Positions 1,368 to 63,874 of a stretch of DNA of 64,000 nt are shown here, piece after piece. A model generated the notes under the pieces. That model saw only the letters and a program-made list of their open reading frames with translations, had not been told where the DNA came from and searched no databases. Every line of letters begins with the position of its first letter. Position 1 is the stretch's first letter. The DNA is from an uncultured Bifidobacteriaceae bacterium (GTDB lineage: Bacteria > Verrucomicrobiota > Verrucomicrobiia > Limisphaerales > JADLHS01), in NCBI GenBank assembly GCA_964458575.1, contig CAYWMD010000027.1, forward strand, positions 20,642 through 84,641. The letters are read 5' to 3'. Position numbers and translations under genes: made by a program.

Positions 1368-3050
1368 TCACCAATCGCGCACGTTTCCGCCGGCCCGCGG
1401 ATCCGCCGCGCCGGCGAATCCTTTGTTGTCGGCCGTCCGCGCGACGATTTGCGACACCGCCATGGACGACACGGTTCGCACCGGGTGCCCGCGTTGCGAC
1501 AGGGCCGCTTGCAGGTGCGCCGGCAGCGTTTGCTCCACCGCCAATTCATCCGGCAGCCATTGATGATGAATCCGCGGCGCCGCGACAGCTTCGGCGGGGC
1601 TTAGGCCCAGATCCAGCAGACAAACCAGTTCCATCAAAACCGTGCTGATGATCCGCGGTCCGCCCGCCGCTCCCAGCGCAAGCACGGGTTTGCCGTCACG
1701 CAATACGATGGTTGGAGTCATGGACGACAAGGGCCGCTTGCGGGGCGCAACGGCATTGGCTTCCGCGCCGACCAGACCGAAATAATTCTTCGCCCCGGCT
1801 TGGGCCGAGAAATCGTCCATCTCGTTGTTCATCACCACGCCCGTGCCTGGTATCACGACCTTCGACCCGAAACTGGTGTTGACCGTGGCGGTGCAGGCAA
1901 CCCAGTTGCCGGCGGCGTCGGCCACCGAGAAGTGGGTTGTGTGCTTCTTGAAAACGTCGGTCTTCCATCCTGCCGGGGTGCCGTGCGTGGTGACTTCGAT
2001 CGCGTGCTGCGGGTTGATTCGAGCGGTGAGCGACGCGGCGTACGCTTTTGACACTAACCCACGTGGCACCCTGGCAAAATCCGGATCCCCAAGCCAATAC
2101 GCCCGGTCCGCAAATGCCAGCTTCATCGCCTCGGCCATCAAGTGCAGCCGCGTCACGTCGTCGGCCGATTTCAGGTCGAAGGGTTCGAGGATGTTCAACA
2201 TCTGTGCCACATGGACGCCCCCCGAACTGGGCGGCGGGAACGTGATCACCTCGTAGTCTCGATAGGTCGTGGTGATGGGTCTCCGCAGTCGGATGCGGTA
2301 TTGGGCGAAGTCGGCGGCGTTCAGAATGCCCCCATTGGCCTTCATCCACTTTTCGACGGCTTGGGCGAACGGGCCGCGATAAAACCACTTGCCTCCCTGC
2401 TTGGCGATGTGGCGGTACGTCCGGGCGAGATCGGCCTGTTTGAGAATGTCCCCGGCTGCCAGTGGTTGGTGGTTACGGAAAAACACGGCGCGCGACGACT
2501 CGAACTGCGCGATGTCCGCGGATTCTTCCTTGAGCCGTTTGGCGTAACTCGCGCTGATGGCAAAGCCATCCTCAGCGATTTGTGCCGCCGGCAAAATCAA
2601 ATCGCCGAGTTTCCGCCGGCCGAATTTCCTCACGGCGTATTCAAACGCGGCCAGTTCGCCCGGAACACCGCTGGCCAGCGCGCCGGTCTGGCTGAGCGTC
2701 GCGTCGGCCACGCCATTGCGAACAAACATATCCCGCGTCGCTGCGCCCGGCGCCATCTCCCGTCCGTCAATCGCGACCAGCTTCCCGTTCGCGAGCCGGA
2801 TGAGCAGAAAGCATCCGCCGCCGATGCCGGCGTCGGCCCCATCCACCACACCGAGCGTCAGCCCGACCGCGACGGCGGCGTCAATCGCGTTGCCGCCGGC
2901 TTTCAAGACGTTGAGCCCGGCTTCGGTCGCCAGCGGGTGCACGGATGCCACGACTCCATGCACATTTTCGGCGGTGGCCGGCTGGCTGACCAACCGGCCC
3001 AGCAGGAGACAGAGGGCCAACAGGTGTACTTGGCGGGGCACGGCAATCAT
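1368..3050 (-). CDS. ggt: Gamma-glutamyltranspeptidase
   Basis: 560 aa with N-terminal signal peptide. GGT hallmarks are the TTHFSVADAAGNWVACTATVNTSFGSKVVIPGTGVVMNNEMDDF autoprocessing Thr region and the GGPRIIS C-terminal motif. Confidence 0.9.
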   Translation of the reverse strand: MIAVPRQVHLLALCLLLGRLVSQPATAENVHGVVASVHPLATEAGLNVLKAGGNAIDAAVAVGLTLGVVDGADAGIGGGCFLLIRLANGKLVAIDGREMAPGAATRDMFVRNGVADATLSQTGALASGVPGELAAFEYAVRKFGRRKLGDLILPAAQIAEDGFAISASYAKRLKEESADIAQFESSRAVFFRNHQPLAAGDILKQADLARTYRHIAKQGGKWFYRGPFAQAVEKWMKANGGILNAADFAQYRIRLRRPITTTYRDYEVITFPPPSSGGVHVAQMLNILEPFDLKSADDVTRLHLMAEAMKLAFADRAYWLGDPDFARVPRGLVSKAYAASLTARINPQHAIEVTTHGTPAGWKTDVFKKHTTHFSVADAAGNWVACTATVNTSFGSKVVIPGTGVVMNNEMDDFSAQAGAKNYFGLVGAEANAVAPRKRPLSSMTPTIVLRDGKPVLALGAAGGPRIISTVLMELVCLLDLGLSPAEAVAAPRIHHQWLPDELAVEQTLPAHLQAALSQRGHPVRTVSSMAVSQIVARTADNKGFAGAADPRAGGNVRDW

Positions 3051-3181
3051 GTCAGCACGCGGGCGCGGGTTGGAACGACGGATTCACGTGCCTTGAGATG
3101 CGATTTACGGGGCCGCTTGTCAAATTCTCCGTGACGCGGCTCGGACTCCGTCAAATTTCGGACAAGAATGAGATTGAATAA

Positions 3182-6832
<3,651 letters not shown>

Positions 6833-6966: not shown

Positions 6967-8787
6967 TCAATCTTGCGCGGTCTCTTCCATCTCCAAAAAA
7001 CCGTGAAGCTGCCGCAGCCGGGTGGGATGCCGCATCTTGCGCAAGGCCTTGGCTTCAATCTGGCGAATGCGTTCGCGGGTGACGCGAAACTGCCGGCCCA
7101 CTTCCTCCAGCGTCCGCGCGCAACCGTCCCCCAGGCCAAACCGCAATTCGAGCACCTTGCGCTCGCGCGCCGTGAGGCTGCATAACACCTCACCCAACTT
7201 GTCCTTCAACAAGCTGAAGCTCGTGATGTCCAGCGGATTCTCGGCGCCCTTGTCCTCGATGAAATCGCCGAAACTGGCGTCTTCGCCATCGCCGACGACT
7301 GATTGGAGGGAGATGGGTTGCTGCGCCATCTTCAAGACGGCCCGGACGCGTTCCACCGGCATTTCCATCTCCTCGGCGATTTCCTCGGCCGCCGGTTCGC
7401 GGCCAAAGTCCTGCAGCAACCGTTTCTGCGTGCGCATGAGCTTGTTGATCGTGTCAATCATGTGCACGGGAATGCGGATGGTGCGCGCCTGATCCGCGAT
7501 GGAGCGGGCGATGGCCTGGCGGATCCACCACGTGCCGTAGGTGGAGAATTTGTAGCCGCGGCGGTATTCGAACTTCTCGACCGCTTTCATCAGGCCCATG
7601 TTGCCTTCCTGGATCAGGTCGAGGAACGACAGGCCGCGATTGGCGTAATGCTTGGCAATGGAGATGACCAGGCGCAGGTTGGCCTCCACCATTTCGGTCT
7701 TGGCCTGGTTGGCGAGCGCGACGAAGTGTTTGAGCCGTTCGTACATTTTGAAGTACGCCTTGTGGGGCTTGCGCACGAATCGCTCCAGCGTCTGGAGTTT
7801 CTCGGCCTCGGCTTGAACCTCCACCGGCAGCGGGGCGGTTTTGGATTGCCGCTTGCCATCGCAAATCTGGCGCAGGGCGGACTGGAGCCGGTCGTGAATA
7901 TTTTCGGCCACCAGGGTCATTTCCTCAATGACCTTCTGCTTGAAAGCGAACCGGTGGAAGTTCTGTTGAAGCTTTTCCTCCGCCCGGGCCAGCGCGGCCG
8001 CCGCCCGTTTGATGCCCGATTTGGTCTGGGCTTTTTCCAGGGTGGCATACTTCTCATCCACCGCGCGGTCCAGTTCGTGCACGAGGGGGATGAGCTGGCG
8101 CAATTCGCGCAAATGCCGGTCGCGGTTGTCCACCTTCTTCTCGAGAATGACACGGTCGAAGCGTTCCTTGGGCGGCTTGGCCACGAGTTTCTCGGCCAGG
8201 GCAACATGCTCCTTGGCCGCGAAGCCCAGGTTGTAAATGATTTTCACGATTTCCGCCTCGGCGCTTTCAATCCGCCGGGAAATCTCCACTTCCTGATCGC
8301 GCGTGAGCAGGGGCACCTGCCCCATCTGTTTCAGATACATGCGCACCGGATCGTCCAGGCCATCCAACCGGGATCGGTCATGGCCCTCTTCCGACTCGGC
8401 CGCCTTGGTGCGGTCCACTTCCGCCTGATCCACCAACTCAATTTCCAGGTTGTGGAGCTTGACGAGTATCTCCTCGCGTTCCGCCGGCAAGACCTGAAAA
8501 TCGCTCAGGGCTTCATTGATGTCGCCGTGGCTGAGGCAACCTTGTTCGCGCGCCAGTTGGATCAGTTCCTTGACCTTCTGGGCCAGTTCGCCACGGGTGA
8601 GCCGGGGCAGATCCACTGCGGGCCCGGCCGGCGACGACCGGGTGGCGCGCACCGTCCGCGCGGATGCGCCATTGCGGGACCAACCCGGCCGGCGGGTTCG
8701 GGGCGAAGTCGCCCGCGTGGCCGTGACGCGACGCGCCCCCTGAACTCTGGGTACTTCTGGGGAACGCCGATCCTTCGACTTAGGCAT
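6967..8787 (-). CDS. rpoD: RNA polymerase sigma-70 factor RpoD
   Basis: Region 2 [73 protein letters not shown]. Region 4 [30 protein letters not shown]. Long acidic/non-conserved region 1.1-1.2 spacer. Confidence 0.95.
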
Positions 8788-12996: not shown

Positions 12997-14598
12997 ATGC
13001 GCCCGCTGATTGTCGAAGTTCCGACGGCACACACGCCCGAATCGTTGGTGGAGCAACTCCACGGCACGATGGGCGTGGTCTTGTTGCGCAGTGCGCTCTT
13101 CGATTCACCGCAGGCGCGCTACTCGTTTGTTGCGGCGCAGCCGTTCCTGACGTTTCGTTCGTTCGGCTCCCGGTGCGAAATCGCGCACCACGCACCATGC
13201 ACCACGCGCCACGAGCAATTCGGCAATCCGTGGCACCTGCTGGATGCGCTCATGGCGCGTTATGAAATCCTCGATGAGATTGACCTGCCCTTCCCGCTCG
13301 GCGGCTGCTTCGGTTACTGGGGTTACGACCTGAAGAATTTCACCGAGCCGAAACTCCCGCGCCGCGCGGTGAACGATCTGGAACTGCCTGATTGTCACGT
13401 GGGCTTTTATGACAGTCTTGTGGTTTTCGATCATCACCTTGGAAAAACTTGCATCGTCTCGACCGGCCTCGGCGAGGATGGTTCGCGGAATGAAGGGCGC
13501 GCACAGGAACGGGTGGAGTTTTGGCGACAGCGGTTGGCGAGTGAATCAAAACAAACCCTCACCCCGGCCCTCTCCCGTCCAACGGGAGAGGGAGAATCGT
13601 CGGACGGGTGCTTGAATCAAAAGTCCGCGTCATTTGCCGGACGACTCCCGGTGAATCCGAAAGCGCCCGGTTGCTGTCCCCCTCTCCCATCAGATGGGAG
13701 AGGGGTCAGGGGTGAGGGTTCGGTGATTTCCAACCTCACCCGTGACGAATTCCTCGCCGCCGTCCAGCGCGCCCAGCGATACATCTGCGCCGGCGACATT
13801 TACCAGGTGAACCTGTCGCATCGCCTTGCCGCGCCGTGTCCGTTTTCTGGCTGGGAGCTTTTTGAACGGCTGCTCGCCGTGTCACCCGCCCCGTTCGCGG
13901 CGTATTTCGATTGCGGCCATGTTCAAATCGCCTCCTCGTCACCGGAACAATTTCTCCGCCTGAGCGGACCGCACATCACCACGCGCCCGATCAAAGGCAC
14001 GCGCCCGCGTTCATCCGACCCCACGCGCGACGCGCAACTCGCCTACGAACTCCAGACCAGTCCCAAGGAACTCGCCGAACTGGTGATGATCACCGACCTG
14101 CTCCGCAATGACCTCGGCAAGGTTTGCGAATTCGGCTCCGTGCAAGTACCGGAGCTGGCCCGGCTGGAACGTTTCCCCCAGGTGCAACATCTCGTCTCGA
14201 CGGTGGAAAGTCGCCTGCGAAACGACGTGACGCATTTCGCCGCGCTGGCCTCGTGCTTCCCCGGCGGCAGCATCACCGGCGCGCCGAAGTTCCGCGCGAT
14301 GGAGATCATTGACGAGCTTGAACCCATCGCGCGCGGGCCGTATTGCGGCTGTCATGGCTATCTGGGTTTCAACCGCGAGAGCCAGTTGAGCATCAGCATC
14401 CGCACGGCAGTTCACAAAGATGCCACGGCCCACTTTCACGTCGGCGCCGGCATTGTGGCGGACTCCAATCCCGAGGCGGAATACGACGAAACGCTGGCGA
14501 AGGCGGGCGGGTTTCTCGCGGCATTGCAATTTGCAAAACCTGCTTCGCTCCCAGTCCCGGCGTCATCCAAGCGAAGCAAGCACTACAGAACCTCGTAA
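12997..14598 (+). CDS. pabB: Aminodeoxychorismate synthase component I (chorismate-binding enzyme) carrying an in-frame repeat insertion
   Basis: Chorismate-binding domain GDIYQVNLSHR, ASSSPEQFLRL, PIKGTRPR, MITDLLRNDLGKVC and GAPKFRAMEIIDELEP. The Lys in PIKGT is Ala in TrpE/isochorismate synthase, which favours PabB. A roughly 54-aa low-complexity segment (LTPALSRPTGEGE...PLPSDGRGVRGEG) sits between the N-domain and the chorismate-binding domain. Confidence 0.75.
   Translation: MRPLIVEVPTAHTPESLVEQLHGTMGVVLLRSALFDSPQARYSFVAAQPFLTFRSFGSRCEIAHHAPCTTRHEQFGNPWHLLDALMARYEILDEIDLPFPLGGCFGYWGYDLKNFTEPKLPRRAVNDLELPDCHVGFYDSLVVFDHHLGKTCIVSTGLGEDGSRNEGRAQERVEFWRQRLASESKQTLTPALSRPTGEGESSDGCLNQKSASFAGRLPVNPKAPGCCPPLPSDGRGVRGEGSVISNLTRDEFLAAVQRAQRYICAGDIYQVNLSHRLAAPCPFSGWELFERLLAVSPAPFAAYFDCGHVQIASSSPEQFLRLSGPHITTRPIKGTRPRSSDPTRDAQLAYELQTSPKELAELVMITDLLRNDLGKVCEFGSVQVPELARLERFPQVQHLVSTVESRLRNDVTHFAALASCFPGGSITGAPKFRAMEIIDELEPIARGPYCGCHGYLGFNRESQLSISIRTAVHKDATAHFHVGAGIVADSNPEAEYDETLAKAGGFLAALQFAKPASLPVPASSKRSKHYRTS
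13556..13718. repeat. MITE/RPE-like palindromic element, copy 1 (full length, in-frame inside pabB)
   Basis: Left end ccctcacccc-ggc-ccctctccc/gtccaac/gggagaggg and right end cccctctccc/atcagat/gggagagggg-tcaggggtgaggg. The ends are inverted repeats of each other. Each holds a perfect 9-10-bp-stem hairpin. The 86-bp internal segment is not conserved. Confidence 0.7.
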
Positions 14599-14851
14599 AC
14601 AGGGCTGAACAGATCAACCTGGGATCATTAGGGTGCGCCCGGAAGTGGCGGGCAGTCAGCTTCCCACTCCCCTCCACGCGGAGTGGAGGAAAGGGCCGGG
14701 GAAAGGAGGTGCGGTGCAGTCGCGACTTCAATCAATCCGTGACTCACAGTTGCGGCTCCAACCTCGGCAGCCAGCTTGTTTGTTTGCCGCCCGATTTGTG
14801 GTTTTGACACCGTCCAGCAATTGCACTTAATTATGCCACTGAATCCGGGTT

Positions 14852-17800
14852 ATGGACGCGTTCGCGCGCGTTCCGTCGCCCTTCGTCATGGCCAGATCGA
14901 AAATCAATTTGCGCATTCGCTCGGCGGCGGTTCGCGGCAGCCTGCTGCTGGCCTTGACCCTGTCCGGCGCCACGACGGAGGCCGCCACGGATTTCCAGCG
15001 CGACATCAGGCCAATTCTTGCCGAACAGTGTTATTCCTGCCACGGCCCGGAAAAGCACAAAGGCGGATTGCGGTTGGACAAGAAAACTGACGCGTTCAAG
15101 GGCGGCGATTCCGGCGCGGCCATCGTGCCGAACAAAAGCGCGGACAGCCTCCTCTTCAAAAACATTTCCGGCGCGAATCCCGACAGCATCATGCCGCCCA
15201 AGGGCGATCCGCTTACCGGGACACAAGTCGCCTTGATCAAAGCGTGGATTGACGAGGGCGCGCCCTGGCCGGACGAAGTTGCTGACAGCGACAGGACGCG
15301 CAGCACTCATTGGTCATTTCAACCAGTGAAGCGACCGGAAGTTCCCGCAGTCAAAGACAAACGCTGGGCGCGCAACCCGATAGACAATTTCGTCCTGGCG
15401 CGTTTGGAGAAAGAAAAGATCAAACCGTCGCCCGAAGCGGATCGCATCAATTTGATTCGGCGGTTGAGTCTCGATTTGCTGGGGTTGCCGCCCACGCCCG
15501 AGGAAGTGAAGGCGTTTCTAAAAGACAAAAAGCCCGGCGCCTACGAGCGGCTGGTGGACCGATTGCTGGCCTCGCCGCACTTTGGCGAACGCTGGGGGCG
15601 ACACTGGCTCGATCTCGCGCGTTACGCGGACAGTGATGGTTACGAGAAGGATTCGCCCCGGCCCTACGCGTATCTTTATCGCGATTGGGTCATCGAGGCG
15701 ATCAACCGCGACCTGCCCTTCGATCAATTCACCATCGAGCAACTCGCCGGCGACCTTTTGCCGAACCCGACGAAGGATCAAAAAATTGCCACCGCGTTCC
15801 ATCGCCAGACGCTTATCAACAAGGAAGGCGGCGTGGACCCCGAAGAATTCCGCGACAAGGCGGTGATGAACCGCGTGGACACCACGGGCACGGTGTGGCT
15901 GGGCTTGACGATCAGTTGCGCCCAATGTCACACGCACAAATACGATCCCATCACGCAGCGCGAGTATTATCAGATGTTCGCCTTCTTCAACAATTCCGAC
16001 GAACAGGACCTGCCCGCCGCCAAGCCCGAAGAAATCGCGAAGTTTAACACAAAGAAATCCGAATGGGACACCGAGCACGCGAAACTGAAGAAGCCATACG
16101 ACGATTACGTACGCGAAAAATTGCCGGCCAAGGTGGCCCGTTGGAGTTCAAGCTTCAGCTTGTCCCAGCCTTCCGATGGTTCCGACGATGACAGGCTAAA
16201 GCCTGAACTCCAACCCCGGCTGGCTTTGTGGAGCGTTCTCAAGCCGGAGCAGGTTGCCGCCGCCAACGGGGCGACGCTGACCGCGGAAACCAACCATTCG
16301 ATCGTTGCCTCCGGCACCAATCCGCTCACCGAAACTTACACGGTGGAAATCAAACCAGCGCCGGGCGACATCACCGGATTTCGAATCGAGGTGTTGCCCG
16401 ATGATAAAGGCGAATCCGGCCCGGGGCGTGTTGGCAGCGGCAACTTTGTTCTCAATGAATTCACGGTGACGATCCAATCCACGGACGGCGCGGCACCACG
16501 TGCGGTTGCATTGACCAATGCCTCGTCGGATTTTTCGCAAAAGGAATATGACGTCGGCGGGGCGATTGACGGCAAAGCCAACACGGGTTGGGCCGTCGGA
16601 GGGGAAGCCAAAAAACGCCACGTGGCGGTGTTTGCGTGTGCCACGCCGCTGAAGCTCGCGGCCGACGAAACGCTGGTGTTCACGTTGAACCAGCAATTTG
16701 GCAACCAGCACACAATCGGCCGCTTTCGATTGTCCGCCACGGCCACGCCGTCACCATTCCAGGCCACGCTCGTCTCGGATGCCGTGCCGGCGGCGTGGTT
16801 TACGCCCGCAGAAAAGCGCACCGCCGAACAAAAGGACACCTTGGCCGATTATTATCGGGACGAGGTGGACCCCGGCGCGAAGAAACTGCGCAAGCCGATT
16901 CAGGAACACGCGAAGAAAGAACCGAAATATCCCGAAACCGCCGCCGCCATCCTGGTCGAGCGGGAGAAACCGCGCGCCACGCATGTCCACGTTCGTGGCG
17001 ATTTCCTCCGGCCGGGCGATGCGGTGCAACCGGGGACGCTGGCCGTGCTTAACCCGTTCAACCCGCGCAACGGAAAGCCCGACCGGCTCGATCTGGCGCG
17101 CTGGTTGATGGATGAGACCAACCCGTTGACCGGTCGCGTCGTGGTGAATCAGATCTGGAACAATCTTTTTGGCCGCGGGCTCGTGGCGACGGTAAACGAT
17201 TTCGGCACGCGCGGGGAGAAACCGTCGCATCCGGAGCTGTTGGATTGGCTCGCGACGGAATTCCCGCGCTTGGCCTGGAGTCGCAAGGCCCTCATCAAGT
17301 TGATCGTTACGTCGGCCACCTACCGTCAATCCGCCAACTACCGGCGGGATCTCGAAGCGCGCGATCCGCTGAACACCTTGCTCGCGCGGCAGAACCGGTT
17401 GCGTTTGGAGGCCGAGACCGTGCGCGATGTTCACCTCGCGGCGAGCGGTTTGTTGTCCGACAAAATCGGCGGGCCCAGCGTACGGCCACCGTTGCCGGCG
17501 GACATCGCCGCGCTGGGCTACGCTAGTTCCATCAAATGGGAGGAGAGCAAGGGCGAGGAGCGTTATCGGCGCGGCATGTATATCTTTTTCCAGCGCACCG
17601 TGGCTTACCCGATGCTGGTGACCTTCGACGTGCCCGATTCGAACAACACCTGCACCCGCCGCGAGCGTTCCAACACGCCATTGCAGGCGCTGACACTGTG
17701 GAACGATCCGGTGTTCTTTGATTGTGCCCGCGCGTTGAGCAAACGTGTCGCGGGTGAACGAAGTGTGAACGCACGGCTCAAACGCGCGTTCGAGCTTTGT

Positions 17801-25335: not shown

Positions 25336-28300
25336 TCATTTCTGCTCCGGCGGCGGTTCTCCACTTTGCGCGGCTTCACGCTGTTTCTGCGCCTCGGCAA
25401 TTGCTTTCTGGAATTGTTCGAGGAACGCCCCTTCGTTACTCAACATCTCTTGGGTGACATCAATCTCCAACGAACCTTGTTTGGCACGAGTCTCCAGCAA
25501 CTCTTGAGACTTGTGTAAATGATCCCGCTGCCGCCCCGCCATGTCCTTCAACGTCGCCAGCGTGCTGTGGACCATCTCCATCTCGTGCTCCATCCGCTTC
25601 ATGGCATCCGCCATCGTGCCGGTGTGAACAACCGAAATCGCCTGGCTCAAATCCTGGCGCAACGCGCTCAATCCCTCACCCAGCTTCGCAGCCAGTGCAT
25701 TGAAATCGCCGTGGCCGTTATCGTCCTTCTTGGCCGGTTGCGCCAGGCGTTGATCAACGGTGTTGCGCAAGGCTTCGAGGTTCGCCGCCAATGGCGCGAG
25801 ATCAATCGTCACGTTCGGCGGCGGTTGGACCGGCTGCGGCCTGGCGGCCTGCTTTTCCAACGTCGCCTGTAAAGCTTCGAGCCCCTTGCCCACGGGTGAC
25901 ATGTCCACCACGACCTGCGGCGCGGCTTGGGGCTTTGCCGATTGTTTGTCCACCGCCGCTTGCAGTGCCTCCAGGCTCTTACCCACCGGCGTCATGTCCA
26001 CATTGACCTGCGGAGGTGGTGGCGGCGGCTTGGCCAACTGGTCGGAGATGATCTTCTGAATGCCTTCCAATCCGGACTGAAATCCGCTCAACTGCGCCAC
26101 GATGCGTCCGGCCGGATCGTGATCCCCGCCCGCGCCCCGTGCCGCCGTGTTGTGTTTGAAGGTCTTCTTGATCTCCTCCCAACGTGATTTTTCCTCTGCT
26201 GTCTGAACGCCGATCAGTTCCCGGAACTTGAGCATGTTCGCTTCCGTGCCCGTCGTGAGCGTCTGCGACTCGCCGCGGTAGTGATCGAGGATGAGCGCGC
26301 GCATCTCGTCATCGTTCATGATCGTGACGACTTTTTCCGCGAGGCGGTTCATGTTGCGATACGATCCCTGCAACCGGAACGGCGGCTCGACGCGGAACTC
26401 ATCCGCCTGAGCAGCGGAGTAGATGTATTCTTGGTTCACGCGCAAGATGACCTCGCGAGTCATCACGAGCTTCTTCATCACCGACAAAATCTCTTCCACT
26501 TCCTGTGACGAATAACTGCCCTCGAACCCTTCCGCCTCGCGCTCGCCGGATTCCGCCATGCGGATGAACGAGCGAATGTCCTTCTGACTCTTGTTCGCCA
26601 GCGGCGCCAGCACGGCGTTCGACGTCACGGCGTTTTCGAGATAGCTCGCTTTGAAATAATCCGCTTTGCCGCCGATGATGTCGCCGAGATTGTAGGTGTC
26701 GGCACGGTTCGCGAGCATGTCCGGGATTTTGAACTTCTGCCCGCTCTCGGTGTAAGGATTGCCCGCCATCACGACCACGACCTTGCGTCCGCGCAAATCG
26801 TAAGTGCGCGGTTTCCCGCGCCAGACGCCTTCGATGCGGCGCTGCCCGTCGCAGAGCGAAATGAACTTCTGCAAAAACTCCGGGTTGCAATGCTGGATAT
26901 CGTCCACGCAGATCATCGCGTTGTCGCCCATCTCCAGCGCGAGGTTCAGCTTGATGATTTCCTCACGCGCGGCGGCGTTCGGCGCTTCTTCCGGATCGAG
27001 CGACACGACATTGTGGCCGAGCGCCGGGCCGTTGATCTTGATGAAGATGATGCCCAACCGGCTCGCAACATATTCCATCAACGTCGTCTTGCCGTAACCG
27101 GGCGGCGAAATGATGAGCAGCAAACCCATCAAGTCTGTGCGCTTGGCTGCGCCCGCCGCGCCGATTTGCTTGGCGAGATTGTCGCCGACCATCGGGAGAT
27201 AAATCTGGTCAATGAGCTGATTGCGCACGAACGACGTCAGCACCTTGGGCTTGAATTCATCGAGTCGCAGCTTGGCGCGTTCGCGTTCGATCAACTGTTG
27301 CTTCAGCGCGTGGAACTTTTCAAAACGCGGGACGACGTCGCGCTCAAATTTCTGGAGGCGATCCTGGAAGTTCAGGTAATCGAACTGATACTTGCTGCCT
27401 TGAATGAGCGCGTGATTCCCGCGCATGCCTTCGATTACCCGCGACGTTGCGGCCTTGACCACGGACCGCTTGAGTGCGTCACCACAAAAGAGAATGGCAG
27501 AGATTTCGTCGAGATAGCGGAACTGGTGGGTCGAGTCGCGCTGCGACTCGACGTCCGGTCGCAGCGCGACCGGACCTACCTGCAGAAAGCCCCGCACCCA
27601 GTCGCGCACCAAATCCAGTTCGCTGCCGGGATGTTCAGCGAGCGCCTCTCGCCGCTGCTCGAAAGCTTTCTCGCTGCCTTTGCTGGCGAGATGCCGGTTG
27701 AACGACGCCACCAGTCCCTCCGCCTCCTGACTGACGGAAACCGCCTCGCCCGTGATCAGTTCGTTGAAAAGGTACTCGCCTGCTTCATTCGCAGTTGCCG
27801 GCGGATAAAGCTTGGTTTGCTCGACGAACGCGGCAATCAAACCTTGCAGCGCGGCGATGTAGTTCTGCTGCGTCGGATCGCCGGGGAACAGCTTGTTGCG
27901 CTCGGCAAAGGCATCGAGCTTGGCCGACCACAGCGTCTTCGTTTCCGCCGGGCAGAAGCGATTCCAATAAACCACCGCACAGGCCCGCGCTGCCGGACTG
28001 AACCGCGCCAGTTGCAGCGCGTGATGGGTCGTGAGCAGCGCGTGGAAAATCTTCGCACCGTCCAGATCGTGAATGCCCTTGGTGTAACCTTCCTGATAAC
28101 GCGCGCCCATAAACTCCTGCACGAACGCAAGGCGTTTGTCTTCCGAGAATGCGAGCGCTTCCGCCAAGCTCGGAGCGCCGAGCACCGGCTCGGCTCGCAC
28201 TGAGCTGTTGGAACGGGCCGAGCTGGTGCTGGGCGCTCCTATCGCCTTCAACATCTGCCACGCCAGATATTCAGCACGATACACCTCGCGGTTCTCGGAC

Positions 28301-46295: not shown

Positions 46296-46325
46296 GCAAC
46301 GCCAGCGACTCAACCGTGAAAAATC

Positions 46326-46485
46326 CCCTCACCCCAGCCCTCTCCCGTCCGACGGGAGAGGGAGAATTATCCACCGCTGGTTGGAGATTTCGTGAGTTGG
46401 CGATGGCAGCAAGGCCCTTTGAAGATTCAGTAACATCGGATCGCTGTTCCCTCTTCCATCGGATCGGAGAGGGTCAGGGTGAGGG
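46326..46485. repeat. MITE/RPE-like palindromic element, copy 2 (full length, intergenic)
   Basis: ccctcacccc-ag-ccctctccc/gtccgac/gggagaggg ... 86-bp internal segment ... ccctcttcc/atcggat/cggagaggg-tcagggtgaggg. Same architecture and length as copy 1, with a different internal sequence. Confidence 0.7.
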
Positions 46486-46503: not shown

Positions 46504-47763
46504 ATGCCCACCATCGCCATCCTCGGCACGATGGACACAAAAGGCGACGAACACGCCTTCGTGGCCGAACTCATCCGCCAACGCGGACACCAGGTTTTCG
46601 TCATTGACGTCGGCACGCTTGGCGAGCCGCGACTCCAACCGGCCATCTCGCGCACTGAAGTCGCGGCGGCAGCGGGAGTTGACCTCGCCGCCCTCGTGGC
46701 TAAGAAAGATCGGGGCGAAGCCGTCACCGCCATGTCACGCGGCGCACCGGTGGTGCTCGCAAAGCTGGTCGCGGAGAAACGGATTGACGGCGTGATTTCA
46801 CTCGGTGGCGGCGGTGGGACGGCCATCGCCACGGCAGCGATGCGCGCGTTGCCCGTGGGATTTCCCAAGCTCATGGTATCCACTCTCGCCAGCGGCAACG
46901 TCGCGCCGTACGTCGGTGTAAAGGACATCGTGATGTTTCCGAGTGTGGTGGACGTGGCGGGATTGAACCGTATTTCCCGGATGCTGCTTGCTCGCGCAGC
47001 GGGAGCGATTTGCGGCATGGTGGAAGTTGGAGTTCAAGCTTCAGTTTGCCCGGGGGAGACGCTGAAGCGTGAACTCCAACCGGACAAGCCCATCATCGTC
47101 GCCAGCCAGTTCGGCAACACCACGCCCTGCATCGAGCACACCAAGAAAATCCTCGAGGCCGCCGGTTATGAAGTCGTGGTCTTCGCCGCCACGGGCACGG
47201 GCGGACGCACGATGGAGTCGCTGATTGAAACCGGCCTCGTCGCCGGCGTGCTGGACGTGACCACGACCGAATGGGCGGATGAACTGGTGGACGGCGTGCT
47301 GACGGCCGGGCCGACGCGGCTCGAAGCCGCCGCGCGCCGCGGGGTGCCCGCAGTGGTTTCCACCGGCTGCCTCGACATGGTGAACTTCGGCGCTCCGGAT
47401 TCCGTGCCGGCAAAGTTCGCCGGTCGGAAGTTCTACCAGCACAATCCCCAGGTAACGCTCATGCGAACTACGGCGGAAGAATGCGCGCGGCTTGGCCGGA
47501 TTCTCGCGGAGAAACTGAATCTTTCGACCGGTCCGGTGACCGTGCTGTTGCCATTGCGTGGCGGCAGCGTGATCAGCGCACCGGGCGGGCCGTTCCATGA
47601 CGCGGCGGCGGACGCAACATTGTTCGCCGCACTGAAAGCGGGTTTGCGCGCGGACATTCCGGTGCGGGAACTGGATTGCAACATCAATGATGCCGCCTTC
47701 GCGCAAGCGTGTGCGCAAGCCTTGCTGGATCAGTTGGCGACTTCCGTGAACCGGAAACTGTAG
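46504..47763 (+). CDS. UPF0261-family protein (Tm-1-like N-terminal ATP-binding domain)
   Basis: MPTIAILGTMDTKGDEHAFVAELIRQRGHQVFVIDVG is the family's hallmark N-terminus. Size 419 aa. Confidence 0.7.
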   Translation: MPTIAILGTMDTKGDEHAFVAELIRQRGHQVFVIDVGTLGEPRLQPAISRTEVAAAAGVDLAALVAKKDRGEAVTAMSRGAPVVLAKLVAEKRIDGVISLGGGGGTAIATAAMRALPVGFPKLMVSTLASGNVAPYVGVKDIVMFPSVVDVAGLNRISRMLLARAAGAICGMVEVGVQASVCPGETLKRELQPDKPIIVASQFGNTTPCIEHTKKILEAAGYEVVVFAATGTGGRTMESLIETGLVAGVLDVTTTEWADELVDGVLTAGPTRLEAAARRGVPAVVSTGCLDMVNFGAPDSVPAKFAGRKFYQHNPQVTLMRTTAEECARLGRILAEKLNLSTGPVTVLLPLRGGSVISAPGGPFHDAAADATLFAALKAGLRADIPVRELDCNINDAAFAQACAQALLDQLATSVNRKL

Positions 47764-47817: not shown

Positions 47818-50800
47818 CTACCTTTTTGGCGGCAACGCAAACGCCACATAGGCATCGCCGCGTTGTGCTTCCAGCTTGCTCCCGGTCGCGGGGATGACGA
47901 GGTATTGGCGGCCATCCACTTGATACGTCGCGGGTGGCGCGTTGCCGACCCACGGGAGTTTGGCGGACCAAAGCTCCGCGCCCGTGTCCTTGTCGAACGC
48001 GCGGATCTTGCGGTCGCGTGTTCCCGCGCAAAACACCAGGCCGCCCGCCGTCACGATCGCGCCGCCGTAGTTTTCCGTGCCGGTTTTCGGCACGCCCTGC
48101 GCGGTGAGTTCGGGATGCTCGCCGAGCGGAACTTTCCACAGGAGCTTGCCGGTGTTGAGATCGAGGCAATTGAGCGAGCCCCACGGCGGTTTGCTGGCGG
48201 GATAACCTTCCTGGTCGAAAAATCTCGGGTAACCCGCAAAACTGTAAACGGGCCGTTCCGTCTGCGCTTTCGGCGGCAGCGACCGGTCGCGCAACATCAG
48301 AAAATCCACGAGCGCCTGCAGATCGGGCTGGCCGATTTGCGCTTCCGGGAAAGCGGGCATGGCGTATTTGCCAGTGCGGATTTGATTCGTCACGGCCTGA
48401 TCGGTGAGGCGATGGCGCAATCCCCGCAGCGCCGGGGCGGTGCCGATGCCGAGCCGGTTCATGCCGTGGCAGGTGGCACAGGCGGTTTCAAAAACGATCT
48501 GCCCGCGCGTTTTCGGCGCGTTCGGATCGTCCGGCGGATCGTCGTCGCGGAAAATCGTGATGAGCCAGCCAATGTGATTGGCGCTGACGTAAAGCCGGCC
48601 TGATTCCGGGTCAACGCACGAGCCGGTCCATTCGCCGCCGCCGTCAATGTTGAAGAACAAATTCGCGCGGCCTTCGCTGCCGGGACGGAACCAGCCCTTG
48701 GTGGCGCTGTTGAAACGGGTCAGCGCGAATTCGGCGGCCTCTTCGGTGCGGTCGGTGAGGTCCGCTTGGGTGAACTCCTGTTTCGAGAAGCGCTCGGGCA
48801 ACTCCAGATCTGGTTGGTAGGGCGACGTGACTTCGCCGCGCAGATCGCTCGTGGGCGCGCGGCGCAGGCGGAAGGGAAAAATGGGCTTGCCCGTCACGCG
48901 ATCGAGCAAGAGCGTGTTGCCGATCTTCGTCACGACGGCGACCACGTCCACGCGTTTGCCGTCGCGCGTGATCGTGGCGAGGTTCGGCGGCGCGGGGATG
49001 TCGAGGTCCCAAATGTCGTGGCGGATTTCCTGAAAGTGCCAGAGCCGCTGGCCGGTGCGGGCGTCAATGGCGATGAGACAATTCGCGAACAGGTTGTTAC
49101 CGAGGTGATTGACGCCGATGAAATTGTTCTTCGGTGACCCGGTCGAGACGTAGGCGATGCCGCGTTGCTCGTCCATGGCCATGCCGCTCCAGCAATTGGC
49201 GCCGTAGACTTCAGTCCGATCCCAGGTATCGTAGCCGAATTCGCCCGGTTGCGGTACGGTGTGAAAGGTCCAAAGGTGCTTGCCGGTCGTGACATCGAAG
49301 CCCCAAACATCCTTTTCAAAGCCCGGCACGACGATGACGCGTTGAAAGATTGCCGGGCAGGCCGTTGCCGCGCCAAAGTCTCCCTGCACCCGCCCGGGCA
49401 GTGCGGTTTTTCCGCCCTCACCAAAACCAGCAATGGGCTGGCCGCTTTTCGGATTGAGCGCGTAAAGATATTGGCCCGCGCAAAACATCACCCGCTCGCT
49501 CGCATGACGGTCACGCGGCCGGTAAATCAAACCGCGAAATGCCGGGCGTCCTTCCGGTTTGAAACGCCAACGCTCAGTGCCGGTTGCCGCATCCACGGCC
49601 AAGATGTGCTGCCCGGGTGTCGGCGCGAACAGGACGCCCTCGACGATGATGGGGTTGCATTGAATGTAATTGCTGCCATCGCGCGAGTGGTAGGTCCACG
49701 CGACCTGGAGGTTGGTGACATTTTGGCGATTGATCTGGTCGAGCGCGGAGTAGCGTGTCCCGCCGTTGTCGCCGTGGGAACGATGCCACGACTGATAGGT
49801 CTTGCGTTTGGGGTAACCGTTGGCGCGCGTGAGTTCCTCCGGCTTCGCGGCGGGAATGGTTTGGTAAAGGGGCAGTTTCTCGCGCGCCTTCGGGTCTTCG
49901 ACGGCCCAATAGCGGTTGGTCGCAAGTGTGACATTGGTCCAATTCTCCTCACCCAGGCTGACGGCCACCCTCTCCCCATCGGATGGGGAGAGGGGAGGGT
50001 GAGGGGGAGTATTCGCGCGTTGACGGGATAACTGGCCGGCCAAACGCTCCAGCCCCTGCAAATTGGCCTGCAACCGCGTTTCCGCGTCCTCGTCCGTGTG
50101 GCTCAAAATTCCAATCGGCCCGCGCCAGCCGCTCGCCACGATCATTTGCAGCAGGCTCAAATCCAGATCGCCCTGACCAATCGGCAGAATCTTCCTCCCG
50201 CTCTTGTCACCGTCACGGACCATGCCGTTGAGATTCAGCGCGAACAGGTGGGGTTTCATTTTCGCCAACAACCCGGCGAAGCGGTCAACGTGACCGTGGC
50301 CGTGGTGCAGATTGTAAACGATGCCAACATTGGTGACTCTTTGATCACGGAGTCGGGCAATGATCTCGAGCTGATTCTCCGGCTCGCCGAACCACCCGCC
50401 GTGATTGTAAAGCGCAACGGTGCAATGGAGTTCCGCGGCGGCGTCGGTAATGGGTTTGATCCGTGCCGCCTCAGCCGCAACCCGGGCCGTTTGTTCATCC
50501 GGGCTCTTCGTGGGTTCGCCGCCGCCCGAGATCCATAGTTGAACCCCGCGCAATTTGTGCCGCTGGAGCACATCCAGAATCAACCGGGCCTCATTGTTCA
50601 ACGTTCCCGGAAACCACCAGGCCAGCAGGCGGACGTTGTGGCGCTTGAGCGCGTCCATTTCGGCGTCGAAGGTCGGAACATGCTCGGCGCGATAATCGTA
50701 GGCAAAGAGTTGGAAGCCGAGCTTCTCCAGCATTGCCGCACGCTCCTCCGGCCCGCGCTTCTTGGCATCGAACGGGACAATACACCAGGCGACCAGATTG

Positions 50801-50922
50801 GTGCGGGCAAACAGACCAGCGTCACGGGTTGAACCGGCAGCCGTGTCGAGGGCAAACACCCGGAAGGCCGAGAACGCCAGCTCGGCAGAGACCCAGATGA
50901 CCAGCCACAGTCCCTTGCGCAT
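47818..50922 (-). CDS. Fusion ORF of a xylose-isomerase-like TIM-barrel domain with a PQQ-dependent dehydrogenase beta-propeller and a C-terminal cytochrome c
   Basis: N-terminal about 300 aa sugar-phosphate isomerase/epimerase-like (HGGWFGEPENQLE ... NLHHGHGH). Then the solo repeat-encoded PPHPPLSPSDGERV. Then a PQQ propeller (AWTYHSRDG, repeated W-motifs, DIWDLDIPAPP). Then CATCHG haem site. Its start is 6 bp after the dnaE stop. It may be one fusion gene or two adjacent genes. Confidence 0.7.
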   Translation of the reverse strand: MRKGLWLVIWVSAELAFSAFRVFALDTAAGSTRDAGLFARTNLVAWCIVPFDAKKRGPEERAAMLEKLGFQLFAYDYRAEHVPTFDAEMDALKRHNVRLLAWWFPGTLNNEARLILDVLQRHKLRGVQLWISGGGEPTKSPDEQTARVAAEAARIKPITDAAAELHCTVALYNHGGWFGEPENQLEIIARLRDQRVTNVGIVYNLHHGHGHVDRFAGLLAKMKPHLFALNLNGMVRDGDKSGRKILPIGQGDLDLSLLQMIVASGWRGPIGILSHTDEDAETRLQANLQGLERLAGQLSRQRANTPPHPPLSPSDGERVAVSLGEENWTNVTLATNRYWAVEDPKAREKLPLYQTIPAAKPEELTRANGYPKRKTYQSWHRSHGDNGGTRYSALDQINRQNVTNLQVAWTYHSRDGSNYIQCNPIIVEGVLFAPTPGQHILAVDAATGTERWRFKPEGRPAFRGLIYRPRDRHASERVMFCAGQYLYALNPKSGQPIAGFGEGGKTALPGRVQGDFGAATACPAIFQRVIVVPGFEKDVWGFDVTTGKHLWTFHTVPQPGEFGYDTWDRTEVYGANCWSGMAMDEQRGIAYVSTGSPKNNFIGVNHLGNNLFANCLIAIDARTGQRLWHFQEIRHDIWDLDIPAPPNLATITRDGKRVDVVAVVTKIGNTLLLDRVTGKPIFPFRLRRAPTSDLRGEVTSPYQPDLELPERFSKQEFTQADLTDRTEEAAEFALTRFNSATKGWFRPGSEGRANLFFNIDGGGEWTGSCVDPESGRLYVSANHIGWLITIFRDDDPPDDPNAPKTRGQIVFETACATCHGMNRLGIGTAPALRGLRHRLTDQAVTNQIRTGKYAMPAFPEAQIGQPDLQALVDFLMLRDRSLPPKAQTERPVYSFAGYPRFFDQEGYPASKPPWGSLNCLDLNTGKLLWKVPLGEHPELTAQGVPKTGTENYGGAIVTAGGLVFCAGTRDRKIRAFDKDTGAELWSAKLPWVGNAPPATYQVDGRQYLVIPATGSKLEAQRGDAYVAFALPPKR
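49964..50008. repeat. Solo right-end hairpin of the MITE/RPE-like family, in-frame at the domain junction of the fusion ORF
   Basis: ccctctcccc/atcggat/ggggagaggg-gagggtgaggg. Confidence 0.6.
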
Positions 50923-63769: not shown

Positions 63770-63874
63770 GCAGATTGGCAATCTGCCGTATCCGCCGACT
63801 GGCAGTCGGCAGGATATCCACTCTTCGCTGGCGTGCGGATTGCCAATCCGCGATACGGCAGACTGCCAGTCTGC
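63770..63874. repeat. Cluster of four 17-bp perfect palindromes downstream of leuB (REP-like)
   Basis: gcagattggcaatctgc (63770), gccgactggcagtcggc (63794), gcggattgccaatccgc (63835) and gcagactgccagtctgc (63858). Consensus GCRGAYTGSCARTCYGC. Copies 1+2 and 3+4 form two larger units that are imperfect inverted repeats of each other. Confidence 0.6.

Follow-up and report, generated by a model that had tools for sequence, protein, structure and literature searches.

The pabB gene (aminodeoxychorismate synthase component I) in the 64-kb stretch of DNA studied here, which we call the window, carries in frame a 163-bp insert made of two inverted copies of the BoxC/PIT/TM_ECO motif, with their G-rich tails pointing outward. 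The insert occupies a permissive linker of the PabB protein and was already present in the ancestor shared with the closest relatives. In what follows, a unit is one copy of this triplex motif, of approximately 38 nt, and a pair is two inverted units. The explanation that we prefer, with a rough probability of 0.55, is that the pair is a gene-less selfish derivative of cassettes carrying a DUF559 gene and is tolerated as a disordered spacer; its spread would have been driven by DUF559. The gene and the parts of the insert are the following.

12997-14598, plus strand: pabB open reading frame (ORF), 533 aa (from the ORF list and Pfam).
13556-13718, no strand: 163-bp pair of two inverted, tail-outward units, with the peptide LTPALSRPTGEGE...PLPSDGRGVRGEG (from sequence, folding and motif pattern).
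13556-13592, minus strand: left unit, read on this strand as CCCTCTCCC GTTGGAC GGGAGAGGG CCG GGGTGAGGG, similar to type B of BoxC/TM_ECO and with CCG as second loop (from the relaxed triplex-motif (TM) regular expression, alignment and G-quadruplex scan).
13593-13679, no strand: spacer of about 87 nt, starting with the conserved sub-terminal tail (A)GAATCG and ending in GCTGT (from the comparison of copies).
13680-13718, plus strand: right unit, read as CCCTCTCCC ATCAGAT GGGAGAGGGG TCA GGGGTGAGGG (from the hairpin finder, TM regular expression, alignment and G-quadruplex scan).

Pfam places Anth_synt_I_N at residues 12-150 and Chorismate_bind at residues 249-502 of the PabB product, and the insert, at about residues 187-241, lies in the linker between the two within a single 533-aa ORF, as had been proposed in a sequence-only reading of this DNA. 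The plus-strand order over 13556-13718 is CCCTCACCCC-GG-CCCTCTCCC-GTCCAAC-GGGAGAGGG ... CCCCTCTCCC-ATCAGAT-GGGAGAGGGG-TCA-GGGGTGAGGG. That reading had described an element of about 160 bp with terminal inverted repeats of about 20 bp and, at each end, a perfect hairpin of 9-10 bp with a 7-nt loop, and all of this was confirmed. The repeat finder gives arms at 13554-13574 and 13700-13720 (21 nt, 86% complementary); the left hairpin, CCCTCTCCC-GTCCAAC-GGGAGAGGG, can be drawn with a 9-bp stem and a 7-nt loop or with 11 bp and a 3-nt loop, and the right one, CCCCTCTCCC-ATCAGAT-GGGAGAGGGG, has a 10-bp stem that can be extended to 13. When the insert is folded as single-stranded DNA (-52.2 kcal/mol, z = -6.5), its termini are paired and enclose two internal hairpins. 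The hairpin pattern has four matches in the window against 0.00 expected from shuffled sequences, and GGGGTGAGGG has three against 0.07. Only one of the six frames of the 163-bp insert is open, and it is the pabB frame; at the level of units, five of six frames are open in the left unit and in the single unit described below, and three of six in the right unit. The right unit encodes PLPSDGRG on both strands, in agreement with the earlier claim that the hairpin gives nearly the same peptide whichever strand is read. An AlphaFold model of PabB, based on a 30-sequence alignment and poor overall (mean predicted local distance difference test score, pLDDT, of 49), serves only to indicate that the insert is the least structured stretch of the protein: residues 187-240 are coil at a pLDDT of about 28, between the helices at 166-181 and 249-264.

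Judged by its sequence, each end of the insert is the known BoxC/PIT/TM_ECO intrastrand-triplex motif. The family is thus not new, and the suggestion that it was an unrecognised one had to be given up, since the ends belong to a motif already described (PMC4666352), which crosses phyla. It was named BoxC first, then PIT (potential intrastrand triplex) and then TM_ECO (Bergler 1992; Hoyne and Maher 2000; Holder et al. 2015, PMC4666352), and it is the same motif as HPG1, the "G-quadruplex-hairpin-duplex switch" of Kaplan et al. 2016 (PMC5100583). The published pattern is 5'-CCCTCNCCC N3-6 GGGNGAGGG N3 GGGNGAGGG (PMC4666352). Its block order, namely a 9-nt C-rich stem (CCCTCNCCC), a 9-nt G-rich stem (GGGNGAGGG) and a second G-rich block (GGGNGAGGG), is present in all five units of the window, with at most one substitution per block under a relaxed regular expression for which 20 shuffles give 0-1 matches. 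The strict published TM_ECO expression matches nothing in the window, and the sole cause is the length of loop 1, 7 nt here and 3-6 nt in the published pattern. This is a variant of the pattern and not a different motif: loop 1 becomes effectively 3 nt by a 2-bp extension of the stem, and loop 2 measures 2-3 nt. The order CCCTCNCCC, loop, GGGNGAGGG, 2-3 nt, GGGTGAGGG is nearly identical in sequence to the E. coli motif; when reverse-complemented, the left unit agrees with E. coli TM_ECO #1 and #4 at all non-loop positions, and the window units also align with TM_ECO #9, taken from the K-12 genome. Further traits shared with BoxC/TM_ECO are the occurrence as single units and as inverted pairs of two end types, the potential for G-quadruplex (G4) and triplex formation, and the cross-phylum distribution. 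Canonical G4 motifs (four G-tracts of at least 3, separated by N1-7) are located at 13556-13576 (minus), 13696-13718 (plus), 46325-46346 (minus) and 49985-50007 (plus), so that four of the five such motifs of the window are triplex-motif units. Rfam at gathering thresholds returned no family over the whole window.

The E. coli motif has been characterised in some detail. K-12 has 23 TM_ECO copies, all intergenic, including five inverted pairs in which two types are always combined; the triplex is stable in vitro by circular dichroism and nuclear magnetic resonance, not in vivo; the motif is accompanied by local genome instability, and no mechanism of spread was reported (PMC4666352). Within BoxC/TM, the pabB element differs in being a tail-outward pair, in its 7-nt loop, in its intragenic position and in its verrucomicrobial host. 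The pairs described here point their tails outward around spacers of 67-87 nt, whereas the E. coli pairs are tail-inward (an orientation that we derived from the coordinates and strands in the table of PMC4666352) with about 16-30 nt between the units. The copies here are intragenic and, as argued below, in all likelihood translated, in contrast to the E. coli copies, which are reported only from intergenic DNA; our literature search found no description of an intragenic BoxC.

A profile search of the window finds exactly five units, that is two pairs and one single unit, three of the five lying within ORFs. The insert is therefore a repeated palindromic element, as had been predicted, and the possibility of its being unique in the genome is rejected. 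The copies outside pabB are:

46326-46485, no strand: second pair, 160 bp, intergenic, between a 1695-aa ORF ending at 46295 and a UPF0261 gene starting at 46504 (from the hairpin pattern and TM regular expression).
49968-50005, plus strand: single unit within a 1034-aa ORF (47818-50922, minus strand) fusing a sugar-isomerase-like (xylose-isomerase-like) part to a PQQ-dehydrogenase (from the profile and TM regular expression).

Both end types are kept between the two pairs of the window, which differ little in length (163 and 160 bp). The left end has in both the loop GTCCRAC, CCG or CTG as second loop and the tail AGAAT, and the right end the loop ATCRGAT, TCA as second loop and the tail GCTGT. 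The interiors of about 87 nt from these two pairs and from five related ones give no usable alignment beyond the sub-terminal tails. With conserved ends and interiors that cannot be aligned, the pair is a defined composite of which only the ends are conserved. The single unit encodes PPHPPLSPSDGER, in the linker between AP_endonuc_2 (residues 131-292) and PQQ (residues 379-795). It is common only to the window protein and its closest relative, P0382, while P0383 (...AQLDGPSKYWAVED) and other PQQ-dehydrogenase homologues have a clean short linker without it. The clean indel expected of an insertion is thus seen for this unit; it is not seen for pabB, where most other orthologues have a different repeat-like sequence. 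Among the homologues P0382-P0500, the isomerase-like/PQQ-dehydrogenase linker is hypervariable, with an extra domain of about 200 aa (Pfam PF13385) in some and short repeat-like peptides (..RRSGVAPDS..PETGETPVPQ.., ..GTGILPV..TGRMPVPQ) in others.

The history of the pabB insert was read from the 120 best relatives of PabB (70-81% identical, labelled Limisphaerales, Verrucomicrobia subdivision 3 and similar) and from 80 orthologous DNA loci from metagenomes. A related pair lies at the same linker site in about 40% of the Limisphaerales-type orthologues sampled, in dozens of independent metagenomes. A segment with homology at this site, which the sequence-only reading had named as evidence against an insertion if it occurred in unrelated lineages, therefore does occur, in related lineages only. 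The peptide encoded by the pair in orthologues is LTPALS followed by LSERERE, HPMGEGE, RPTGEGE or PSDGERE at one end, and LPLP..GGEGRGEG or ...LLGERAGVRA at the other, and all 15 pairs found in orthologues are tail-outward, like those of the window. The closest relatives, P0002 and P0003, have the end types of the window and a recognisably homologous interior, which indicates that the insertion predates their divergence and that it is old and vertically inherited, with no recent hop. Over nine orthologous pairs the ends are 90% identical and the interior 50%, compared with 48-55% at the third codon positions of the flanking pabB sequence; the spacer diverges to the extent seen at synonymous sites. 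Depending on the orthologue, the right end gives GGEGRGEG or LLGERAGVRA, which correspond to different frames. Since the ends are 90% conserved and yet are read in different frames, their conservation is at the nucleotide level and not at the protein level. Each of the 81 orthologous linkers examined has a length that is a multiple of three and contains no stop codon, as is expected if the insert is translated and not if it is removed from the RNA, so that its translation is strongly implied. The pabB linkers also include collapsed forms, in L127 and L145, and half elements, in L154 and L164.

Most PabB orthologues that lack the triplex motif have another repeat-like or palindromic sequence at the very same linker site. 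At least 11 other recurrent types of linker peptide were distinguished (L122-L201), many of them palindromic with perfect stems of up to 27 bp; examples are RAGSPLPA..RRARSDAPYL, GAPASGPA..AGPEAGAP, PQRHRDTE..LRLCASVAK, SRKDAKTQ..LCAFAPLRE and GRDAFHRVP..DAVERVPT. Several types recur outside pabB, which identifies them as genuine interspersed repeats. Representative positions are:

L149:2528-2686, L142:985-1122, L157:2440-2586, L126:910-1062 and L176:8180-8320: examples of pabB linkers with a non-triplex sequence.
L191:4256-4331, L199:288-340, L169:4568-4642, L193:1649 and L173:3810: copies of linker families outside pabB.

Perfect inverted repeats of 9 bp or more are present in 42 of 81 linkers, compared with 3% of control segments of equal length from the same genes. 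Of the inverted repeats with stems of 14 bp or longer, 14 lie in approximately 8.5 kb of linker and 25 in the remaining 846 kb, 20 of these 25 being non-genic, and their density in the linker is several-fold above that of intergenic DNA. The inter-domain linker of PabB is thus a hot spot for repeat-like, mostly palindromic elements. On a neighbour-joining tree of the PabB cores of 143 taxa, at least 63 changes of linker type are needed, against 78.5 with shuffled labels and a possible minimum of 12; this tree is shallow, star-like and weakly resolved, the linker types are interleaved on it, and the number of independent events that it gives is not reliable. Another long palindromic element, GGTGGGGCGAGCGTCC...GGACGCTCGCCCCACC, lies in pabB downstream of the usual linker site (L198:1326-1408), and a further copy of its family is found within another long ORF (L183:16523-16595).

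The distribution of the motif was examined by searching species-representative genomes and viral contigs with a 21-mer of the left end, CCCTCACCCCRGCCCTCTCCC. It was found in at least 120 species-representative loci from nearly every bacterial phylum, the matches listed including Proteobacteria, Cyanobacteria, Verrucomicrobia, Planctomycetota, Acidobacteriota, Chloroflexota, Deinococcus, metagenome-assembled genomes (MAGs) labelled Bifidobacterium, Omnitrophota and others. Almost all of the listed matches run on into a short variable loop and GGGAGAGGG, neither of which is demanded by the query. The 21-mer was also found in more than 120 viral or prophage contigs (IMG/VR, L206-L325), which together hold 216 units in 1.07 Mb, and phages are a possible vehicle for the spread of the motif across phyla. 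Verrucomicrobial copies have the sub-terminal tail GAGAATCG in common, and pairs in which both end types recur around an interior of about 85 nt occur in other Verrucomicrobia/Pedosphaera MAGs (L046, L117) and on one contig labelled Bifidobacteriaceae (L103); the interiors of these three cannot be aligned. In Pseudomonas (L006:433-756, L022:2784-3070, L102:6227-6402), tail-outward pairs of about 175 bp have a partly conserved 110-nt interior (..GGCCGACCGAGGTGTCTGG..), and the motif is also found in tandem arrays with a period of about 151 bp; the tail GGGGGCMGACCGAG resembles the 3' end sequence of E. coli ycjD.

Of 206 units in the cross-phylum loci, 41 lie within ORFs that extend for 100 codons or more to either side. 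Host proteins confirmed by Pfam, with the unit in a linker or loop, are MetRS, Lpd, VgrG, DsbD (from an enterobacterium), LigA, YgiQ and an MmeI-type enzyme. A verrucomicrobial ABC transporter has a unit between its membrane and ATPase domains, and in an acidobacterial IcmF-like mutase a pair with an 85-nt interior separates MeaB from the mutase domain. That the units are found in frame in linkers and loops of real proteins of many phyla is new.

The motif is further associated with DUF559, a Vsr-like PD-(D/E)XK endonuclease domain: every DUF559 gene that we examined as DNA is bracketed by motif units. In the metG ORF of a Variovorax MAG (L003:1307-1794), a unit, the DUF559 domain and an inverted unit follow each other, all in frame, at a site between the synthetase body and the tRNA-binding domain of MetRS. 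A minimal cassette in L204 consists of a plus-strand unit (3036-3071), DUF559 and a minus-strand unit (3442-3479) with identical loops, and it fills an operon junction between two genes so exactly that start and stop codons touch. The window units align with the cassette ends of L204 and L003. At L203:3030-3737, DUF559 lies between two tail-outward pairs, as a 594-bp direct repeat. In the 1.07 Mb of viral loci all three DUF559 domains are bracketed by units, one of them (L221:378-1197) by tail-outward pairs, and such pairs are also recognised near DUF559 at the peptide level in P0344, P0175 and P0185. E. coli K-12 provides a related case, as the only gene adjoining TM_ECO #9 besides fabI is ycjD, which encodes a DUF559 protein. 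The ycjD ORF ends (..RRSPSP*) in a degenerate motif hairpin, which is followed by a partial duplicate of the ycjD 3' end and then by TM_ECO #9. This suggests a past rearrangement or duplication at the end of a ycjD cassette next to fabI, where BoxC was first described. The positions of the loci not yet given are:

L202:1205-1430, equal to E. coli K-12 NC_000913.3 1351204-1351430: ycjD end and TM_ECO #9.
L267:2461-2913 and L309:9103-9558: further DUF559 cassettes.

The association was also followed in proteins, using a DUF559 query without motif-coded flank against 1.84 billion cluster representatives; this gave 26,061 matches, of which the best 140 were analysed. Sixty of these 140 are at least 300 aa long with an embedded domain. 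Strictly defined motif-coded peptides (GEGxGEG, PSPxxPLP and similar) adjoin DUF559 in 65 of the 140, on both sides in 11. Their density falls from 3.0 per 1000 aa near DUF559 to 0.65 at a distance, and none occurs in the 51,600 aa of PabB cores used as control. Among the proteins that embed DUF559, subunits of restriction-modification systems are especially frequent; examples of hosts are HsdS (P0245, P0247, P0273), MmeI-type enzymes (P0291, P0305), N6/N4 methylases (P0266, P0253), LeuRS (P0344), an Mfd D3 fragment (P0250) and a DUF7008 protein (P0258). Long representatives of approximately 570-630 aa were considered as candidates for a PabB with DUF559 in its linker and rejected, as they have no BLAST match to PabB and are HsdS, MmeI-type enzymes, methyltransferases, LeuRS and others. 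Only about 2% of the units adjoin DUF559, which is the ratio expected of autonomous and non-autonomous elements. Vsr-like proteins have been proposed before as putative homing endonucleases (Dassa et al. 2009, PMC2677866); no paper linking DUF559 to BoxC was found in the literature searched.

According to the explanation preferred here, the pair would be a selfish repeat without a gene of its own, which for PabB is no more than a tolerated stretch of about 54 unstructured residues rich in Pro, Gly, Ser and Glu. Its autonomous partners would, with less confidence, be the small DUF559 cassettes, present in many phyla and in viral contigs, whose inverted ends are made up of the motif. The putative nuclease would nick or cut at the structured motif, and repair would then copy the element in a homing-like gene conversion, by which the units could be propagated and also protected from the decay that the spacer undergoes. 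The pabB pair could alternatively be a junction or a solo remnant of DUF559 cassettes. A broader proposal, which we put forward tentatively and at somewhat less than even odds, is that the BoxC motif provides the terminal inverted repeats of a selfish DUF559 cassette with a very wide distribution, accompanied by far commoner gene-less units and pairs, spread across phyla and phages and maintained in a homing-like manner, the pabB insert being one such derivative. Cassettes and derivatives would enter operon junctions and, in frame and with neither intein nor intron, the linkers of proteins, of which the PabB linker would be a long-occupied landing site.

Several observations weigh against a selfish, DUF559-derived origin. 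Neither a target-site duplication nor an empty site marks a transposition event for the pabB copy. No DUF559 gene is found in the window or in 791 kb of PabB-orthologue loci, no PabB orthologue has DUF559 in its linker, and among the 120 cross-phylum loci DUF559 is found in L003 only. The link to DUF559 can therefore not be shown for the source genome. The pair of the window, with an 87-nt interior that holds no DUF559 ORF, is not itself a DUF559-bracketed cassette, and it is tail-outward, whereas the tails of the minimal DUF559 cassette point inward. As the layouts differ, the link to DUF559 runs via the flanking pairs or junctions (L203, L221, P0344) and not via an identical layout. The flanks of the 80 PabB-orthologue loci contain no other triplex-motif units, so that the pabB copies there cannot be regarded merely as members sampled from a family abundant in the genome, and the conservation of the ends is not readily attributed to gene conversion by numerous genomic donors. 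This conservation fits equally well with a host-level function of the structure. In addition, Holder et al. found by BLAST in E. coli no link of the motif to transposons, phages or plasmids (PMC4666352).

A structure that benefits the host is the main rival, although we consider it unlikely. Selection would have favoured a strong hairpin, G-quadruplex or triplex where the two domains meet in the pabB mRNA or DNA, for instance for ribosome pausing during co-translational folding of the N-terminal domain or for the stability or processing of the mRNA, and any palindrome would suffice. The conservation of the ends as nucleotides over a divergence that saturates third codon positions is what such selection would leave, and the lack of motif copies in the orthologue flanks that could act as conversion donors points the same way, as does the share of canonical G4 motifs in the window that are these units. 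Most orthologues moreover have a repeat-like sequence at the exact site, and about half of all orthologues have a perfect stem of at least 9 bp, of one family or another. These occupants are however unrelated in sequence, in stem length (4-27 bp) and in position, and in approximately one third of the linkers any stem is shorter than 8 bp. The collapsed and half elements persist, and the same units are also found in unrelated linkers and in intergenic DNA. The E. coli motif has neither promoter nor terminator activity and forms no stable triplex in vivo (PMC4666352), and a scan of 13300-14900 revealed no promoter-like or terminator-like site.

Mobilisation by a RAYT, an IS200/IS605-like Y1 transposase, as in pairs of the REP (repetitive extragenic palindromic), BIME or REPIN type, is improbable. 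The inverted, short, GC-rich palindromes with a less conserved spacer do resemble BIMEs and REPINs, which are likewise abundant and non-autonomous and often occur as inverted pairs, and these genomes hold many other palindromic families. The unit ends CCCTCACCCC and GGGGTGAGGG nevertheless lack the GTAG or CGTC tag which, as far as the description in PMC3733652 goes, defines most REPs. A single motif sequence is common to nearly all phyla, in contrast to the lineage-specific REP-RAYT pairs, and the gene that recurs between units is DUF559 and not a Y1 transposase, no RAYT being present between units in any locus examined.

More improbable still is a classical MITE (miniature inverted-repeat transposable element), that is, an internally deleted insertion sequence whose terminal inverted repeats of about 20 bp are recognised by a DDE transposase. 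Small size, terminal inverted repeats, several copies and a strong fold-back are as expected for a MITE, and the insert had earlier been described as MITE-like. The target-site duplication and the shared interior that belong to such an element were not found: the flanks (...aatcaaaacaaa / ttcggtgattt... and ...ccgtgaaaaatc / ttttcctgtat...) have no direct repeat, and copies of equal length have interiors that cannot be aligned. Single units and collapsed forms exist as well, and approximately 2.7 Mb of motif-containing loci show DUF559 cassettes only and no transposase-bearing relative. Finally, it is hardly credible that there is no element at all and that the insert is an assembly artefact, a pseudogene or a linker of low complexity that is palindromic by chance; the contig is metagenome-derived and the linker compositionally biased, but the identical 533-aa PabB protein is found on an NCBI contig and on a Logan assembly, the window has five units against about 0 expected, related pairs lie at the same site in dozens of independent metagenomes, and E. 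coli has the identical motif.

The selfish, DUF559-derived pair can be set beside two further systems. The sequence-only reading had drawn a parallel to the Rickettsia palindromic elements (RPEs), reportedly described by Ogata and colleagues in 2000, and the parallel holds for behaviour: both are short palindromes in frame in genes, tolerated at surfaces or linkers and with most frames open. It does not extend to membership, as the sequence is BoxC-type and the host, judged by the names of PabB relatives, is a verrucomicrobium of Limisphaerales type. The in-frame MITEs of Coxiella (PMC5896051) share the same behaviour. In contrast to RPEs and Coxiella MITEs alike, the element described here has an unrelated sequence, forms a pair with an unconserved interior, crosses phyla instead of being restricted to a genus, and is associated with an endonuclease gene. 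With homing endonuclease genes, including the Vsr-like ones (PMC2677866), the cassettes have in common a small Vsr/PD-(D/E)XK nuclease gene in or between host genes, with hairpins adjoining. Here, however, the nuclease gene is bracketed by a fixed inverted repeat of about 37 nt which also exists in hundreds of gene-less copies, the reading frame runs through with neither intein nor intron, and homing is putative.

The window contains other palindromic sequences as well. A second, unrelated family, GTTGGAGTTCAAGCTTCAG...CTGAAGCnTGAACTCCAAC, is found at 16140-16214 and 47026-47080, both copies in frame within genes. In a 1053-aa PSCyt1/PSCyt2/PSD1 protein it encodes the peptide WSSSFSLSQPSDGSDDDRLKPELQP, and in the UPF0261 protein VGVQASVCPGETLKRELQP, exactly between the N (residues 2-175) and C (residues 195-409) domains. 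As this family too lies in frame in genes, in-frame palindromic inserts are common in the source genome. Further long perfect inverted repeats, with stems of at least 11 bp, are located at 27535-27570, 63773-63871, 25653-25747 and 7261-7383. In the gap just downstream of pabB, 14647-14715 gives a weak and degenerate match to the unit profile (E = 1.2) and a short hairpin, CCTCCAC-GCGGA-GTGGAGG; this may be a decayed unit or a chance match.

BoxC has been an orphan repeat since the 1990s, described as strictly intergenic, and its nature and spread have had no explanation. A motif translated within essential enzymes of many phyla extends the notion of selfish DNA in proteins, known from Rickettsia, to a cross-phylum repeat. 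For annotation, it explains the ...LTPALSPxxGEG... and ...GEGRGEG... peptides that recur in predicted proteins. The in-frame distribution, the linker hot spot and the association with DUF559 are wider leads than the element alone. With its record of repeated landings by about a dozen repeat-like, mostly palindromic families, the PabB linker offers a natural system for studying how elements choose their sites and survive there, and the tight association of the motif with DUF559, a very common domain of unknown function, makes the origin of BoxC and the function of DUF559 a single testable hypothesis.

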